Source: an uncultured delta proteobacterium
GTDB taxonomy: Bacteria > Desulfobacterota > Desulfobaccia > Desulfobaccales > 0-14-0-80-60-11
Assembly: GCA_963812015.1 (NCBI GenBank)
Contig: CAWETI010000003.1
Coordinates: forward strand, 1,024,001 to 1,088,000
Length of the DNA: 64,000 nt
Direction of reading: 5' to 3'
Positions 31,936 to 59,150 of the stretch are shown here, piece after piece; position 1 is the stretch's first letter, and the number at the start of each line of letters is the position of its first letter. The position numbers were made by a program, and so were the translations under genes. Below the pieces are notes generated by a model. That model saw nothing but the letters and a program-made list of their open reading frames with translations, was not told the origin of the DNA and searched no databases.

Positions 31936-32011
31936 ATAATCAATTATAAGTTAGCACGGGTATACTCGCTTTCCGAGCAGGAGCTTGGGAGCGAGGGGAA
32001 AAATATTCATT

Positions 32012-33271
32012 ATGAATAAAGATACTTTTTCAGCTAAATGGCAGGATATCGCGAATGATGGCAGCATAGATACATTTGCCCATTTAAATAATCTTTGTTC
32101 TGAGAAACTGAAATTATCCAAAAACGATGCTCTCGTTATTCCTAATAATACATTTTTTACAAATAACTTATCAGATTATAATTTATTCTCTGAATGTAGT
32201 AAAAATGTAATTCAGGTATTTAATGAAGGAGGAATTAAAGCGCAACTGTATTCTGATGAGAAGGAAAAAAGGGAACTAATACTTAAATCTACCGATATTG
32301 TCTTGCCAATTCTTTTATTTTTAGGTTCAAATGTAGTCAATCTTGGCTTAAATATATTAGCTAATATGATTTATGATAAATGGGTAAAAAATAATGTAGC
32401 AAAAATACCAAAATTAAAAGCTGAGTATTTAGAAATTGATAATAATGGTTCCATCATTAGGTGGCGCAAAATAGAAGGAGCTGCTAATGAAGTGCAAAAA
32501 CTGCTAATTGAGGAGTCACAGAATTTAAAAAAAAAGACATATAAAATTGATAAGACTATTAATAATCGTAAAGATGAATCATGGTGGATTGCCCATTGCG
32601 ATAAAATGGCAAAAGAGGCGATAATAGAAGCCAAAAAATTAATTAGAGAGTCTTCTGACGCTACCTCAGAAAATGAAAGAGACAATTGCGAAGAACTTTT
32701 AAGAAAAAGTTTGGTAAAAATTCGTGAAGCAGTGCTTTGGAAACCTGATGTTGAATCGTATAAGATATATCTCCATCAAGTTGGACACAAAATTCATGAT
32801 ATTTTCGGATGTAAACTTGATTATAGAGAAGAAATGTATTGGGTGACATGCCCTGTATTATTGTCACATTCAAAATGAGTATTTAGTGTTGGCGGTTCTG
32901 GAAAAGCTATTTGTTCAATATGTGGAAACAATATCATTGATTGTGATCATGTTAAGGGGGAAATATATAATAATGTAGTTGCGAGGCATTTTGATGAAAT
33001 TTGTAATATTTGCGGAACCCATGAATGTGAACATATTGATGGAAATATTTACAATAAAGTAAACGCATTTGCCATAATATTGGAAGCTAACCTTGATCAT
33101 GTATCATTTGTTGAAAATCCTGCAAATCCGTTATGCGTTGTCCACAAGTATTCTCTCACGAAAACAGATCTTATGAAAATGCTTCCCAAAGATGAGATCG
33201 ATCAATTTATATATGGAAAATCAATAGTTACATGTCATCATTGTTTAATCTGTAATGAAATTAACGGATAA
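32012..33271 (+). pseudogene. AT-rich foreign gene with one in-frame TGA (32876-32878); TM segment plus Cys/His-rich C-terminal domain
   Basis: ORFs 31985..32878 and 33080..33271 share a frame that stays open for 130 codons after the TGA. Confidence 0.75.
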
Positions 33272-33284
33272 TATCAAAAAATTT

Positions 33285-34151
33285 ATGAAACTCATCGACC
33301 TGCACGTTCATTCCACGGCCTCGGACGGCTCGTTTGCGCCGGCGGAGGTGGTGCGCCAGGCTAAAGAAGGGGGCCTCACGGCCATGGCCCTCACCGACCA
33401 TGACACCGTGGACGGCCTGTCCGAGGCCGTGGCCGAGGGGGAGAGAATCGAGCTGGAGGTCATCCCCGGGGTGGAGATCAGCGCCCAGTTCCCCGGCGGC
33501 ACCATGCACATCCTGGGCCTGTTCGTGGATTACCACAACGGCCGCCTGGACGAGCGCCTGGCGGTACTCAAGCAGGCCCGGATCGACCGCAACCCCCAGA
33601 TCATCGCCAAACTCAACACGCTGGGGATCCCCGTCACCATGGCCCGGGTGGAGGAAATCTCCGGGGGCGGCCAGGTGGGCCGGCCCCACATCGCCCGGGC
33701 CCTCCAGGAAGCGGGGTTTGTCACCAGCATCCAGCAGGCCTTTGATATTTACCTGCGCAAAGGCGGTAAGGCCTACGTGGGCAAGTTCCGGTTTCCCCCG
33801 GGCCAGGCCCTGGCCATGATCCGGGAGGCGAAAGGCATCCCGGTCCTGGCCCATCCCTTCACCCTGGGCCTGGGCTCGGCCTATGCCCTGAAGAACCTGG
33901 TCATCGAACTGAAAGGCCTGGGGCTGGCGGGACTGGAGGTCTTTTATTCGGAGCACACCCGGGAGCAGGAAGCCCTGTACCTGAAGCTGGCCCAGGAATT
34001 GGGTCTGTTGATCACCGGCGGCTCCGACTACCACGGCCTCAACAAGCCGGAGATCACCCTGGGGAACATGCCCTGCCAGGAGAAGCTCACCTACAACCTG
34101 GTGGAAGCCCTGAAGGCCTGGCACCGGCAAGCGTATCCTTTGCCCCGGTAG
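33285..34151 (+). CDS. PHP domain phosphoesterase (TrpH/YciV-like)
   Basis: DLHVHSTASDG, ALTDHDT, GRPHIA, VLAHP, GGSDYHG. Confidence 0.92.
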   Translation: MKLIDLHVHSTASDGSFAPAEVVRQAKEGGLTAMALTDHDTVDGLSEAVAEGERIELEVIPGVEISAQFPGGTMHILGLFVDYHNGRLDERLAVLKQARIDRNPQIIAKLNTLGIPVTMARVEEISGGGQVGRPHIARALQEAGFVTSIQQAFDIYLRKGGKAYVGKFRFPPGQALAMIREAKGIPVLAHPFTLGLGSAYALKNLVIELKGLGLAGLEVFYSEHTREQEALYLKLAQELGLLITGGSDYHGLNKPEITLGNMPCQEKLTYNLVEALKAWHRQAYPLPR

Positions 34152-34175
34152 CGGCCTCCGGCCGTCCACCGACAA

Positions 34176-34209
34176 TACTCTTGACAAATCGCCCCATCCG
34201 GAGTAAAAA
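34176..34209 (+). promoter_or_regulatory. Putative sigma70 promoter of the cbiM operon, with overlapping inverted repeat
   Basis: TTGACA (34181)-N17-TAAAAA; TACTC (34176-80) / GAGTA (34201-05). Confidence 0.55.
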
Positions 34210-34261
34210 AGGGATAATCCGGGGATGAACCCCGGGAAGTCAAGAAGATCGACACGTCCAG

Positions 34262-34314
34262 AAAGCCACGAAGGCACAGGTGCTTGAAAGCGCCGGGTAG
34301 TCGTGGTTTTTTTT
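34262..34314 (+). terminator. Leader terminator/attenuator hairpin upstream of cbiM
   Basis: AAAGCCACGA / TCGTGGTTTT stem with inner hairpin and U-tract, between the promoter and start codon. Confidence 0.65.
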
Positions 34315-34419
34315 GTTCCTGCACCAGGGGTTGCCCAGCCACCGGGCTGGGGAGCGGCCGGGCCGGCCGCCTGAAGCCGGGGGCGCAACCCTCATATACC
34401 GATTTAGGGAGATTTGCTT

Positions 34420-35454
34420 ATGCACATGGCGGATGCCTTGATATCCCCCGCAGTGGGCGGCACTATGTGGGCCGCCACCGCCGGGCTCACCTTATACAGC
34501 GCCAGGAAGCTCAAGCAGGACATGGACGACCGCAAGCTCCCCCTCATGGGGGTCCTGGGGGCCTTTGTCTTCGCGGCCCAAATGATCAACTTCACCATTC
34601 CCGCCACCGGTTCCAGCGGCCATCTGGTGGGCGCCATTATTCTGAGCATCTTGTTGGGACCTTATGCCGCCTTTATTACCCTGGCCTCCGTCATCACGGT
34701 GCAATGCCTGTTTTTTGCCGATGGCGGCTTATTGGCCCTGGGGTGCAATATCTTTAACATGGGATTTTTTGCCTGTTTCATCGCTTATCCGTTCATTTAT
34801 AAAAAGATCGCGGGAGACCGACCGGCCCCGGGCCGCATCCTGCTGGGCGCCATGGCCGCGGCCCTCGTCAGCGTGGAGCTGGGCGCCTTCTCGGTGGTTA
34901 TCGAGACCTTGCTGTCCGGCATCTCGGAATTACCCTTTTTCACCTTTGTGCTCTTGATGCTGCCGATCCACCTGGCCATCGGCGTGGTGGAAGGCCTCAT
35001 CACCGCGGCGGTGGTGACCTTCGTCTGGAAGGCCCGCCCGGAGTTGGTGGAGGCGGCGCCAGCCGCGGCGCCGGGCGCGCCGCGCTCCTTTAAACCGGTC
35101 ATCCTGGGGTTGGTGGCCCTGGCCATTTTCACCGGCGGCCTCCTCTCCTGGTTCGCCTCCACCCACCCGGACGGCCTGGAGTGGTCCGTCAAGGGCGTAA
35201 CCGGCAAGGAGGAGGTTCAGGCGCCCAAGACCGGGGCCCACGGGGCGCTGGCTGCGCTCCAGGAGAAGCTCGCCTTCCTGCCGGACTATGACTTCAGGAA
35301 GCCGGCAGGCGAAAAAGAGGCCAAGAAAGAAGAGAGCTGGCCCGAGGTCAATCCCGGCAAATCCCTGGCAGGGGTGCTGGGGGCCGGCATTACCCTGCTC
35401 CTGGCCGGGGCCATCGGCTTTGGCCTGAAAAGGTATGCTTCGCGCCACGGCTGA
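34420..35454 (+). CDS. cbiM: Ni/Co ECF transporter S component, CbiM/NikM fused to a PDGLE (NikN-like) domain
   Basis: MHMADALI N-terminus, GSSGHL, FADGG, ASTHPDGLEW. Confidence 0.9.
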   Translation: MHMADALISPAVGGTMWAATAGLTLYSARKLKQDMDDRKLPLMGVLGAFVFAAQMINFTIPATGSSGHLVGAIILSILLGPYAAFITLASVITVQCLFFADGGLLALGCNIFNMGFFACFIAYPFIYKKIAGDRPAPGRILLGAMAAALVSVELGAFSVVIETLLSGISELPFFTFVLLMLPIHLAIGVVEGLITAAVVTFVWKARPELVEAAPAAAPGAPRSFKPVILGLVALAIFTGGLLSWFASTHPDGLEWSVKGVTGKEEVQAPKTGAHGALAALQEKLAFLPDYDFRKPAGEKEAKKEESWPEVNPGKSLAGVLGAGITLLLAGAIGFGLKRYASRHG

Positions 35455-35533
35455 TCCCGGGTTTTCCCGGGCAGGCACATCCGGGGCGGGGTGCGCAGTT
35501 CGGCCCCGCCCCCGGTCTTGCTAAGGCGGCAGC

Positions 35534-36346
35534 ATGGGCACCATCGAAAATTCTCTCTATAATATCGGCTATCTGGAGACGCTGTCCTACCAGGCGACCG
35601 TCATTCACCGGCTGGACCCCCGGGTGAAACTTTTGACCGCCATGGTCTTTATTGTCGCGGTGGTCTCCTTCCCCAAGTACGCCGTCGCGAGCCTGATTCC
35701 CTTTTTTCTCTATCCGGTGGCGCTCATCGCCTTGGGCAATGTGCCCCTTAAGTACCTGGGGAAGAAAATCTTGATCGCCGCGCCCTTTGCCTTTTGCATC
35801 GGCATCTTCAATCCCCTGCTGGACCGGCAGGTCATGGTGCACCTCGGGCCCCTGGCCATTTCCGGCGGTTGGGTCTCCTTTGCCTCCATCATGCTCCGGT
35901 TCATCCTGACGGTGAGCGCCGCCCTGATTCTGGTGGCCGTCACCGGCTTTCACAAGGTCTGTTTTGCCATGGAGAGGCTGGGGATGCCCAGGGCCTTCGC
36001 GCTCCAACTCTTGTTCCTCTACCGCTATCTGTTCGTGCTGGGGGACGAAGCCGCCCGGATGGTGCGGGCCCGGGCCTTGCGGACCTTTGAGGGCCGCGGC
36101 TTGGGCTTTGGGGCCTACAGTTCTATGCTGGGCCACCTGCTGTTGCGCACCCTGGACCGGGCCCAACGCCTGCATCAGGCCATGCTTTCCCGGGGGTTTG
36201 ACGGCGAAATCCGCCTGCTCCGGCCCTTACACCTGAACCGCCGGGATGTCGGGTTTTTCCTGGGTTGGTCCGGTCTGTTCGTGCTGCTCAGGCTGTATAA
36301 CATCTCCCAATGGTGGGGGACCTGGGTAATGGGGCTGGTAAAATGA
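35534..36346 (+). CDS. cbiQ: Ni/Co ECF transporter T component
   Basis: HRLDPRVK, YRYLFVL, AMLSRGF. Confidence 0.9.
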   Translation: MGTIENSLYNIGYLETLSYQATVIHRLDPRVKLLTAMVFIVAVVSFPKYAVASLIPFFLYPVALIALGNVPLKYLGKKILIAAPFAFCIGIFNPLLDRQVMVHLGPLAISGGWVSFASIMLRFILTVSAALILVAVTGFHKVCFAMERLGMPRAFALQLLFLYRYLFVLGDEAARMVRARALRTFEGRGLGFGAYSSMLGHLLLRTLDRAQRLHQAMLSRGFDGEIRLLRPLHLNRRDVGFFLGWSGLFVLLRLYNISQWWGTWVMGLVK

Positions 36347-37095
36347 GTCACCATATCATTGAGTTGGAAGATCTGTGCTATGCTTACCCGGATGGCAACC
36401 AGGTTTTAAAGGGGATCTCATTCCGGATCACCCATGGGGAGAAGGTGGCCCTGGTGGGGGCCAACGGCGCGGGCAAGTCCACCCTGCTCCTCCAGTTCAA
36501 CGGCTGCCTGCTGCCGGAGTCCGGGCGGGTGCGCATCGGCGATTTGCCCGTGACCAAAAAGACCCTGACGCACGTGCGGCGCACCGTGGGCCTGGTCTTT
36601 CAGGACCCCGACGACCAGCTGTTTATGCCCCTGGTGTTTGACGACGTGGCCTTCGGCCCCTTAAACCTGGGCCTGAGCCCGGAGGAGGTGGAAAGGCAGG
36701 TGACGAAGGCCCTGTCCGCGGTGGGCGCCGTCCATCTGAAGGACCGCCCGCCTTACCACTTGTCCGGCGGGGAAAAACGGGCGGTGGCCATCGCCGCGGT
36801 GCTATCCCTGACCCCGGCCATCCTGGTGATGGATGAGCCGAGCTCCAATCTCGACCCCAAGACCCGCCGCCAACTCATCGAGCTTTTAAAGACCTTCGAG
36901 CACACCCTGATCATCGCCACCCACGACCTGGACCTGGTCCTGGACCTCTGCCCCCGCACCCTGGTGCTCAAGGAAGGCCGTATCGCCGCGGACGGCCCCA
37001 CCCGAGAGATCATGCAGGACGAAGACCTGCTGGAGTCCTGCAACCTGGAGAAGCCCCTGAGGATGCAGGGCTGCCCCCTGTGCCACCCGGCTTGA
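36343..37095 (+). CDS. cbiO: Ni/Co ECF transporter ATPase
   Basis: GANGAGKST, FQDPDDQLF, LSGGEK, DEP; ATGA overlap with cbiQ; C-terminal CPLCH. Confidence 0.9.
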   Translation: MSHHIIELEDLCYAYPDGNQVLKGISFRITHGEKVALVGANGAGKSTLLLQFNGCLLPESGRVRIGDLPVTKKTLTHVRRTVGLVFQDPDDQLFMPLVFDDVAFGPLNLGLSPEEVERQVTKALSAVGAVHLKDRPPYHLSGGEKRAVAIAAVLSLTPAILVMDEPSSNLDPKTRRQLIELLKTFEHTLIIATHDLDLVLDLCPRTLVLKEGRIAADGPTREIMQDEDLLESCNLEKPLRMQGCPLCHPA

Positions 37096-37157
37096 TTCGG
37101 GCCAGTTGCTGGTGGTGTGTTTCAAATTAAAGTAACAAGGTAAAAAACGGTCTTTTA

Positions 37158-37236
37158 CCCCCCCTTCCTGAAGGGGGGCCAGGGGCGGGTTATAAGCGTT
37201 TGAAATCCCCCTAAATCCCCCTTTTTCAAAGGGGGA
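37158..37236. repeat. REP-like palindromic doublet (same family as 686-775)
   Basis: 37203-37236 identical to 686-719; inverted degenerate unit upstream. Confidence 0.8.
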
Positions 37237-37326
37237 TTTACCTGCCAAGTCCGGTGCTCCGACCCCGATTTTATGTCCTGTTAATGGTGAAACGCTCCAA
37301 TAGTTCCGCTGGTTTAGGCTGGGTTC

Positions 37327-37358
37327 GTATTGACGACAAACGGACTAATGCTTATTTT
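37327..37358 (+). promoter_or_regulatory. Putative promoter/operator of the His-rich micro-ORF
   Basis: TTGACG-N17-TATTTT overlapped by imperfect palindrome GTATTG-N13-TAATGC. Confidence 0.5.
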
Positions 37359-37394
37359 TATTTAATAGATAAGGAAAAGGGAGGTGAATCTTAG

Positions 37395-37556
37395 ATGTGT
37401 TGCCACGACAAAGACAAGCATGAGCACGAGCATAGCCACGAAGGTTGTAGCCACAGCCATGACGGGCACGAGCATAAGCACGAGGCCGGGGTCCATAGTC
37501 ATGAGCATACCCACGCTGATGGGCACCATCAGCACGATCACAAGTGCTGCCATTAA
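37395..37556 (+). CDS. 53-aa His/Cys-rich metal-binding micro-protein (not in ORF track)
   Basis: MCCHDKDKHEHEHSHEGCSHSHDGHEHKHEAGVHSHEHTHADGHHQHDHKCCH*; GGAGGTG RBS 8 nt upstream. Confidence 0.88.
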   Translation: MCCHDKDKHEHEHSHEGCSHSHDGHEHKHEAGVHSHEHTHADGHHQHDHKCCH

Positions 37557-37583
37557 CGGAAAGCCACGGGTCCGCTAACCATC

Positions 37584-37643
37584 AAGCCACGAAGGCCGTA
37601 TCCGGTGTGAACGCCGGAGAGAGCGTTCGTGGCTTTCTTTTTT
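37584..37643 (+). terminator. Terminator-like hairpin, second copy of the cbiM leader motif
   Basis: AAGCCACGAA / TTCGTGGCTT stem, inner TCCGGTG-TGAA-CGCCGGA, U-tract. Confidence 0.7.
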
Positions 37644-37724
37644 GCCGTTCCGTATCGTTTTCTCGAAGGGGGTGGCGCCAGGCCGGCGTGAGGCCGGGGC
37701 CGCCCTCCGCCGTGTGGTCCGCCC

Positions 37725-38133
37725 TCAGCCCCCCAGGGGATGGGGCACGGTTTCGGGATCGGTGGGGCCGGGGCCGGCAACTTCTCGCCAGGCCATGAGG
37801 TGGAGGATCCCCGGCCCGGGGTTGGTGATGGCGTGGGCGCAGCCCGGCGGGATGCGGATCAGGGTGCGGTCCCCGGAGATGATGCGCTCCCGGACCTGGC
37901 CGGAGGCGGTTTCCCAGGTGAAGACGCCGACGCCGTGGAAGGGGTAGAGCCACTCTTCATGACCGGGGTGGAGGTGGTGTCCCCGGGTCTGGCCCGGAAT
38001 GGGTGGAGATCAGATGGAAGGTGGACAGCACCCCCCCGGGGACCTTCCGCCGAGCCTGCCAGGGGAAAAAGCTCATGCCCCGGGCGTCGGCCTTGATTTC
38101 GCCGCTCAGATCGATGAAATGAACTTCTGCCAT
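37725..38133 (-). pseudogene. Cupin (RmlC/WxcM-like sugar isomerase) with a 1-nt frameshift
   Basis: MAEVHF..DARG..FHLIS continues in the +1 frame as IPGQTRGHHLHPGHEEWL...IPPGCAHAITNPG...PLGG*; span 409 nt = 3n+1. Confidence 0.8.
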
Positions 38134-55813: not shown

Positions 55814-56003
55814 GGCTCCTTACCTTTTCGGACCGGATGAGGAACTGGGAGACCGATTTCTCCGCAAGGCGGCCGGGCCGCCGCCCCCACCAAGGGGAAT
55901 GCTTGCATCTTATGCGGCGGAGGGCTTCATGTAAAGGGGGAACCGGTTTTCAGTCCGAAAAAAAAATCCACCGGCACTGATGGACCGGTGGTCCCAAAGG
56001 AGG

Positions 56004-56368
56004 CGCGAAGCAGGCCGTAAGCCGAGTTCTGTCCCGGGTTGCCCCGGTGATGATCATTCCTCTAGGACCCCGGTTACCCGGGGCCTCCAGCAACCTACCC
56101 GGGAGCTTCGGGCGGGCCACCCTCAAACGCTCCCCTATTTGGTCTTGCTCCAGGTGGGGTTTTCCAAGCCGGCAATGTCGCCACTGCCGCTGGTGAGCTC
56201 TTACCTCACCCTTTCACCCTTACCGTGGACGTACCACGGCGGTCTGGTCTCTGAGGCACTTTCCCTAGGGTTGCCCCCGCTGGGCGTTACCCAGCACCCT
56301 GCCCTGTGGAGCTCGGACTTTCCTCCGGCGGCTCAAAGGCCGCCGGCGATCATCTGGCCTGCTTCGCG
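56004..56368 (-). ncRNA. rnpB: RNase P RNA (type A)
   Basis: Minus strand has GAGGAAAGTCC, AGTGCC.CAGA, GGAGCAAG and ACAGAACTCGGCTTAC; the ends pair as P1. Confidence 0.95.
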
Positions 56369-59074: not shown

Positions 59075-59150
59075 TGGTGGGCCCACCCGGATTTGAACCA
59101 GGGACCGTCCGGTTATGAGCCGGTTGCTCTAACCGCTGAGCTATGGGCCC
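59075..59150 (-). tRNA. tRNA with CAT anticodon, probably tRNA-Ile2 (lysidine)
   Basis: GGGCCCATAGCTCAGCGGTTAGAGCAACCGGCTCATAACCGG...GGTTCAAATCC...GGGCCCACCA; lacks the initiator C1:A72 mismatch; downstream of rpoD. Confidence 0.92.

Follow-up and report, generated by a model that had tools for sequence, protein, structure and literature searches.

A conserved His/Cys-rich microprotein family tied to a candidate RNA-level nickel regulon in Desulfobaccales

The window analysed here is a stretch of 64,000 nucleotides from the genome of an uncultured delta proteobacterium of the order Desulfobaccales (GenBank assembly GCA_963812015.1). Its part of interest contains the three genes of an ECF-type metal transporter with a leader in front and, further 3', a small gene for a His- and Cys-rich peptide that has its own promoter-like sequence and is followed almost directly by a conserved RNA element (Table 1). 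The gap that separates the ATPase gene from the peptide promoter contains two inverted copies of a short, dispersed C-rich/G-rich hairpin repeat. By a relaxed pattern, the genome has 135 such repeats, six of them in the window, and several close relatives have a shorter gap at this point. Elsewhere, the window carries an RNase P class A RNA, a tRNA, and two ORFs, one of them small, that are flanked by pdxJ-like and PHP genes and were possibly acquired.

Table 1. Features of the window that are discussed in the text (position 1 is the first base of the window)
Feature	Position	Strand	Remarks
ORF and small ORF	31985-33271		AT-rich codon content
nik operon leader	34181-34314	+	-35 box, AUGAA-loop hairpin (34219-34235), core (34263-34275), inner hairpin, 3' arm, U-tract
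ECF S component	34420-35454	+	CbiM/NikM domain fused to PDGLE domain; likely nik(MN)
ECF T component (CbiQ/NikQ)	35534-36346	+	
ECF ATPase (CbiO/NikO)	36343-37095	+	
Hairpin repeats	37158-37240		two, inverted, C-rich/G-rich
Sigma-70-type promoter	37330-37358	+	-35 TTGACG, 17 nt, -10 TATTTT
Antisense hydrophobic ORF	37362-37553	-	63 aa
Shine-Dalgarno sequence	37380-37384	+	GGAGG, 10 bases 5' of the ATG of the peptide gene
His/Cys microprotein gene	37395-37556	+	53 aa; Cys pair at both ends, four HxH-rich segments
Extra arm (copy 1)	37558-37570	+	1-2 nt past the stop codon; predicted pairing with 37626-37638
Core (copy 2)	37584-37596	+	AAGCCACGAAGGC; small GCC-ACGAA-GGC hairpin or 5' arm of terminator
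Inner hairpin	37602-37617	+	UGAA loop; compensatory changes in relatives
3' arm and U-tract	37626-37643	+	of intrinsic terminator
RNase P class A RNA	56003-56365	-	
tRNA	59078-59150	-	

The peptide gene consists of 53 codons and a TAA stop. Its translation has 19 His and 5 Cys, with His written by both of its codons (CAC 10 times, CAT 9 times), just as a preliminary description of the locus had reported. The alternating HxHxH runs named in that description are also there (11 HxH steps, the longest His run being a single HH). It further called the ends symmetric, with CCH at each; CCH does occupy residues 2-4 and 51-53, but as a direct repeat with no mirror arrangement, the Cys pair being the part that is conserved. 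The predicted product has a mass of 6.2 kDa, with no signal or hydrophobic segment and neither an HMA domain nor a CxxC motif. The ribosome-binding site and separate promoter-like sequence that had been proposed both hold up. A single sigma-70-like site lies 5' of the ORF, compared with 0.4 expected from shuffles, and the signals are conserved across the family: GGAGG or GGGGG precedes 48 of the 48 family genes with upstream sequence, and a promoter-like site precedes 43 of the 48 (versus 6.5% of shuffles). As for the terminator that had been reported, a terminator-like hairpin occurs at 37606-37631, in a scan that found three versus 2.4 expected and is uninformative taken alone. An intrinsic terminator is indeed present, but it is part of a larger conserved element (37558-37643) that is common to the leaders of uptake genes.

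The genome has 128,641 frames that run from start to stop with 25-120 aa, and only the peptide ORF and a 53-aa paralogue exceed 30% His (both have 36%, and the next frame 28%). Because its His content is matched only by the paralogue, the ORF is not a chance frame. A six-frame search found matches in 33 of 41 related genomes, nearly all of them full length and 68-91% identical. With a 29-row profile, matches were found in 56 of the 83 genomes of the order Desulfobaccales (42 of the 58 high-quality ones); the gene looks dispensable, since the same profile finds no match in the other 27 genomes, 16 of which are high-quality. In a search of 301 genomes of the phylum, the peptide was found only in the order and in four genomes of one other genus.

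The preliminary description had counted a frame not conserved in relatives as grounds against the peptide; the frame is conserved, and third-position differences dominate. In 36 gapless genes of 53 codons, pairwise differences at the three codon positions are 0.13, 0.16, and 0.44, with pS 0.78 versus pN 0.14, and the median dN/dS is 0.10 (based on the 163 of 630 pairs that are unsaturated). Purifying selection acts along the entire peptide sequence, and these 36 genes share 16 invariant His positions and an invariant C-terminal Cys pair. The length is exactly 53 aa in 46 of 49 distinct genes; the last residue is His in 42 of the 49, and Cys18 is not conserved. It should be noted that an N-terminal Met-Cys-Cys was the criterion for collecting the genes, so its conservation is by construction, whereas that of the C-terminal pair (present in 49 of 49) is not.

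We weighed whether the ORF might be open by chance or be the shadow of another frame, with the antisense hydrophobic ORF, or nothing, as the real product. The antisense frame is open, and the codon score of the peptide ORF is slightly negative under a genome-trained model. However, pN (0.27) exceeds pS (0.17) in the antisense frame, which marks it as the shadow, and start, stop, ribosome-binding site, and promoter are conserved on the sense strand. We give this reading a negligible chance. One other frame has pS greater than pN, and it contains stops in 36 of 36 sequences. The peptide ORF is a real conserved gene. There is also a weak sign of transcription: contigs from RNA libraries cover relatives' copies of the ORF (80% likeness) in all four of the runs examined as contigs, which come from four studies and belong to 14 metatranscriptome runs that share 5-10% of the words. 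The runs were selected with this same stretch, and the low cover of the nik genes in them is no evidence.

The paralogue is 81% identical to the peptide and lies on the reverse strand of another part of the genome (G000:C3:2127718-2127876, L039). It has its own promoter and 3' element; an exbB-exbD operon led by the element lies upstream of it, and a TonB receptor gene in divergent orientation is nearby. In one relative, a degraded copy without in-frame start or stop lies beside a porin operon (L231, G020:C4:168022-168177), and an intact copy is present elsewhere in that genome.

The peptide has no match in Pfam (E 1e-6), NCBIfam, or PHROG (E 1), and a search of PDB sequences with the family profile gave zero hits. 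The exact peptide and all four of the relatives tested are missing from a collection of 15 billion proteins. A word-index protein search returned only three frameshifted fragments, a scarcity that we attribute to missed gene calls, not absence, and the profile gave 10 hits among 1.84 billion representatives, all of them apparently fragments, frameshifts, or HMA fusions of the peptide family. The ESM Atlas contains the peptide as a hypothetical protein, near two 53-aa clusters (50 and 76 members). Gene callers mostly miss this gene. An AlphaFold2 model has four short strands, at low confidence (pLDDT 59, pTM 0.27), and its quality is too low to build on. No paper on the peptide or the RNA element came up in the literature searched, although RNA-motif catalogues in supplements could list the element. 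The peptide represents a real, undescribed microprotein family.

The transporter upstream had been named cbiMQO, a name we would replace with nik(MN)QO. The S component matches TtNikM2 (4M58) at E 2e-25 and the cobalt CbiM chain 5X3X at 8.5e-6, and besides its CbiM domain and a weak CbiN match it has a fused PDGLE domain, which presumably is the N part of nik(MN). None of the five cobalamin riboswitches of the genome is at this operon. Taken together, these sequence features suggest that the transporter is likely nik(MN)QO more than cbi. The M-Q-O gene order, the N-terminal MH motif, and the fusion of M to a second domain are likenesses to the Nik(MN)QO/CbiMNQO systems as described in parts of PMC545781 and PMC3945884. 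In the same excerpts, nik operons of delta-proteobacteria carry NikR boxes and cbi operons are B12-regulated, whereas the window operon has neither a NikR box nor a cobalamin riboswitch and is led by an uncatalogued element.

The preliminary description also joined the peptide and the ECF transporter in an uptake-plus-storage module, and named synteny with cbiM as a check. The linkage to Ni/Co uptake stands, in that a metal-uptake gene lies within 3 kb of 37 of 46 distinct peptide genes (counting nik/cbi, DUF4198, porin, CbiK, DUF3842, and TonB-system genes, with reference proteins from these same loci), a count that stands without a random-gene comparison. Of the nine others, six have less than 500 nt of contig on one side; at L018, L221, and L224, none of these gene types occurs within 1.5 kb on each side. 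A fixed module is not what we found, however: most of the genes have their own promoter (43 of 48, as above), arrangements vary and include divergent ones, and in many relatives the peptide gene is beside porin, DUF4198, CbiK, or TonB genes instead. The gene next to the window's copy is convergent, and usually no same-strand gene follows. Two other genes without Pfam matches recur at such loci, one for an exported-looking protein of about 150 aa with a Cys-Pro-Tyr repeat (L045:3958-4413) and the other, after cbiK, for an 85-aa protein (L040:7147-7401).

The peptide could be a nickel chaperone that passes the ion from the ECF importer to HypAB, CooT/CooC, or ACS maturation proteins, with little storage. 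A second type of peptide, without Cys pairs and sometimes tandem-duplicated to about 96 aa, occurs at the ends of or inside DUF4198/porin/nik uptake operons, and this is in line with such a role. So are fusions of the His module to an HMA domain with CxxC (14 database proteins), which together with the operon-internal forms without Cys pairs point to delivery rather than storage, and the interaction of Hpn, a small His-rich nickel protein of Helicobacter, with HypA/HypB (described in part of PMC4671568). However, the window gene has its own promoter and no attenuator, and would not be co-induced with uptake; a standing buffer fits this arrangement better than a co-induced chaperone. Only one of the 83 order genomes has an HMA fusion, and there is no obvious maturation-gene neighbor at the uptake loci listed. 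We consider the chaperone unlikely on balance, while giving it serious weight. The fusion proteins are P0006, P0008, and P0015-P0027. In the fusion gene that lies between DUF4198 and porin genes (L232, G370:C312), the last His strand continues into the CxxC region. Rare relatives fuse the His module to a domain of the HMA/CopZ type of metallochaperone (PF00403), which the window peptide lacks. A scan of the genome for further His-rich chaperone genes, judged by eye, found nothing convincing.

The element behind the peptide gene has the core AAGCCACGAAGGC, then an inner hairpin, a complementary arm, and a U-tract, and the same arrangement is found in the nik leader (34263-34314) and in a porin-like leader. 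A relaxed scan of the genome gave nine sites versus one in a reversed control. Two are after peptide genes, one is apparently spurious, and six are in leaders, namely of nik, porin, exbBD (two, one running on to DUF3842-cooT), and TonB-receptor-like operons. Three elements lead exbBD-DUF3842-cooT and two TonB-receptor-like genes (G000:C2:1659565-1662955 and 1087795-1088380); no element was found at a second DUF3842-cooT pair, after a coaD-like gene. The exact pattern was matched in 36 of 41 relatives, with zero control hits. GTDB has at least 120 loci with it, most of them carrying the label Desulfobacterota or Nitrospirota. Among 64 ORFs 3' of the element, the named matches belong chiefly to metal-uptake families, which include CbiM, CbiQ, DUF4198, TonB receptors, ExbB, porins, binding proteins, and CobN; 15 have no Pfam match, and a few are methyltransferases or unrelated. 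In more distant genomes, other, apparently unrelated His-rich ORFs of 85-91 aa adjoin the element (L119 2049-2550, L138, L139), and one of them has it on both sides (L119).

Part of the core can form a small hairpin, whose loop is the 5-nt ACGAA in 36 of 38 cases. When the nik leader is folded in full, the terminator forms, and when it is truncated, the small GCC-ACGAA-GGC hairpin forms, so both states are supported by folding. A second hairpin with a GAA loop lies upstream in 49 of 123 leaders (versus 5% of shuffles). A leader peptide in frame through the core was considered and is not conserved in the part of the loci compared. No Rfam 15 family matches the element at the gathering score in the window or in 20 other loci, and the four weak hits obtained at E up to 10 over 33900-37900 do not overlap it.

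Two known kinds of RNA regulator invite comparison. The dual-hexaloop targets of ANTAR proteins such as EutV are alike in that a small hairpin overlaps a terminator arm and a second hairpin is upstream, but according to the portion of PMC8934654 that treats them they have a hexaloop with A1/G4, compared with the 5-nt ACGAA here. By loop size, the element is not an ANTAR target; a search for ANTAR domains gave no match in this genome, and control genomes gave none either. The NiCo (czcD) riboswitch likewise acts at the RNA level on Ni/Co/Fe transport genes in anaerobes, but in the sections of PMC11672702 and PMC9294342 that describe it, it is a four-way junction preceding efflux genes, whereas the element precedes uptake genes and has no Rfam match. 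The element is not a NiCo riboswitch. The portion of PMC11247825 that treats cable bacteria makes no mention of Hpn or riboswitches.

In other delta-proteobacteria, nik operons are under NikR control (PMC545781, in part). No NikR is found in the 83 order genomes, and this genome has neither NikR nor a NikR box (with up to two substitutions allowed). Across the 301 phylum genomes, NikR is present in one of the 34 with the exact core pattern versus 141 of the 267 others, and DUF3842 in 34 of 34 versus 82 of 267, bearing in mind that kin are not independent and that the exact pattern misses variants.

The element has an addition where it follows the peptide gene. In 43 of 49 genes, the stop codon is no more than 2 nt from the start of an extra arm, which is another copy of the 5' arm, and 47 of 49 retain the small hairpin. 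The 3' arm is lengthened by CC, matching the extra arm, in 27 of 30 peptide-linked elements versus two of 125 others, and an upstream complement of at least 12 bp is present in 26 of the 30 versus one of the 125, which is itself a cut peptide gene. RNAalifold, run on 30 sequences, independently gives a stem of the extra arm that encloses the small hairpin and the inner hairpin. In this stem, 95.8% of cells pair and four pairs have changes in both partners, values that exceed those of shuffles and slid controls. Conservation extends to the ordinary pairing of core and arm, in which the core covaries with that arm in two of these events; the compensatory changes represent only about three to four independent events. 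The extra arm has been lost in a single clade, of four genes. From these alignments, both predicted folds appear to be maintained, each ending in a stem before the U-tract and one of them leaving the small hairpin free. They are close in energy: the window copy has pairing probabilities of 0.32 for the extra-arm fold and 0.68 for the ordinary one, and the extra-arm fold is preferred in 27 of the 35 copies that were folded (four of 39 were unmatched by the pattern and not folded).

The proximity of the arm to the stop codon raises another reading, in which the ORF is regulatory: its translation would be the sensor, and a ribosome at the stop would cover the extra arm, set the 3' fold, and control read-through or release of a decoy. 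The spacing (within 2 nt in most genes) and the conservation of two folds of similar energy suit this idea, as does a locus at which a second element and a TonB receptor follow the peptide gene and its 3' element with no promoter-like site between, a possible read-through unit (L225 62-508). However, a same-strand gene is usually absent downstream, and here the next gene is convergent; at L228 and L229, the receptor has its own element and TTGACA box. Moreover, purifying selection covers the whole length of the protein, variants exist without the element, and other leaders, in the part of the loci compared, have no conserved leader peptide through the core. We regard this reading as very improbable. 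A HisL-type attenuator leader has consecutive His codons and lies upstream of a histidine operon. That comparison was rejected, as the His codons here alternate, the next gene is convergent, and no his gene is downstream in the loci listed.

Hpn is the closest counterpart among known proteins that the preliminary description had offered, as analogous and probably unrelated, and we also find the two apparently unrelated. According to the excerpts of PMC4671568, Hpn and Hpn-2 are, like the peptide, tiny and His-rich with two Cys pairs, often missed by annotation, and found where nickel enzymes are present. Of the 60 residues of Hpn, 28 are His, mostly in stretches; the protein is described there as confined to gastric Helicobacter, is induced through NikR, and serves urease. 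Hpn proteins also bind several Ni(II) per chain and form multimers. In the peptide, by contrast, 19 of 53 residues are His, arranged in an HxH pattern, and the length is nearly fixed (46 of 49 genes); no NikR is found in the 83 order genomes, and there is no urease alpha in this genome. Set against the features described for Hpn, the peptide shows no His-run pattern, NikR control, or urease link, and is therefore not placed in the Hpn family. By analogy, it nonetheless likely works like Hpn.

Which metal would be bound? It may be that the peptide buffers cobalt, zinc, or copper, or any of them. Among the genes at element-led or peptide loci are those for CbiK, tetrapyrrole methylase, CobN, and ZnuA, and the HMA domain with CxxC that is fused to some relatives is usually a copper-type domain. 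In addition, poly-His proteins bind Zn, Co, and Cu as well (PMC4671568, in part), and NikM and CbiM can each bind both Ni and Co (PMC3945884, in part). On the other side, the element and NikR are nearly mutually exclusive, one of the element-led operons in this genome encodes CooT, the transporter operon has no B12 riboswitch, and the S component is nearer NikM2. We judge the other metals improbable. Nickel is favored over cobalt on account of the last two points and of the [NiFe]-hydrogenase and acetyl-CoA synthase (ACS) domains encoded in the genome.

The reading that we prefer, with a probability of roughly 0.55, is that this is a conserved gene with its own promoter whose product belongs to a new protein family and probably serves as a small nickel buffer in the cytoplasm; the gene would be part of a likely nickel regulon, with predicted control by an RNA element that takes the place of NikR. 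The peptide would bind several Ni(II) ions through its alternating His and terminal Cys pairs, and the alternating His may line one face of short beta-hairpins, as the low-confidence AlphaFold strands hint. Imported nickel would be held for [NiFe]-hydrogenases and acetyl-CoA synthase. In the leaders of uptake genes, the element would act by attenuation, with the terminator and the small ACGAA-loop hairpin as competing folds, and a putative factor would promote read-through at metal shortage. Behind the peptide gene, the extra arm would close the terminator with or without the small hairpin, so that the mRNA always stops, while still displaying the site of the factor; this may alter the stability of the mRNA or titrate the factor as a decoy. 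There is a precedent in EutX, a decoy RNA that sequesters the antiterminator EutV (PMC8934654, in part).

Extending this, one RNA hairpin might coordinate nickel uptake and storage in anaerobes without NikR, as a 5' gate of importers and as a terminator-proof 3' decoy on the mRNA of the storage peptide, for a nickel-sensing antiterminator (DUF3842-CooT being the candidate). This is speculative, and we think it rather doubtful as a whole. The proposed hairpin would resemble the iron-responsive element of animals in coordinating uptake and storage, but with the positions reversed.

If the nickel-buffering reading is true, an independent His/Cys nickel buffer in environmental anaerobes would be a case of convergence with Hpn, and a compact peptide of nearly fixed length may be usable for studying or engineering nickel capture. 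The main interest, though, is the tie of the peptide family to a candidate RNA-level nickel regulon. How nickel import is controlled in cells without a NikR match (159 of the 301 sampled phylum genomes) is not addressed in the literature found; the shared element and its two-arm variant make this control testable with short RNAs and a reporter.
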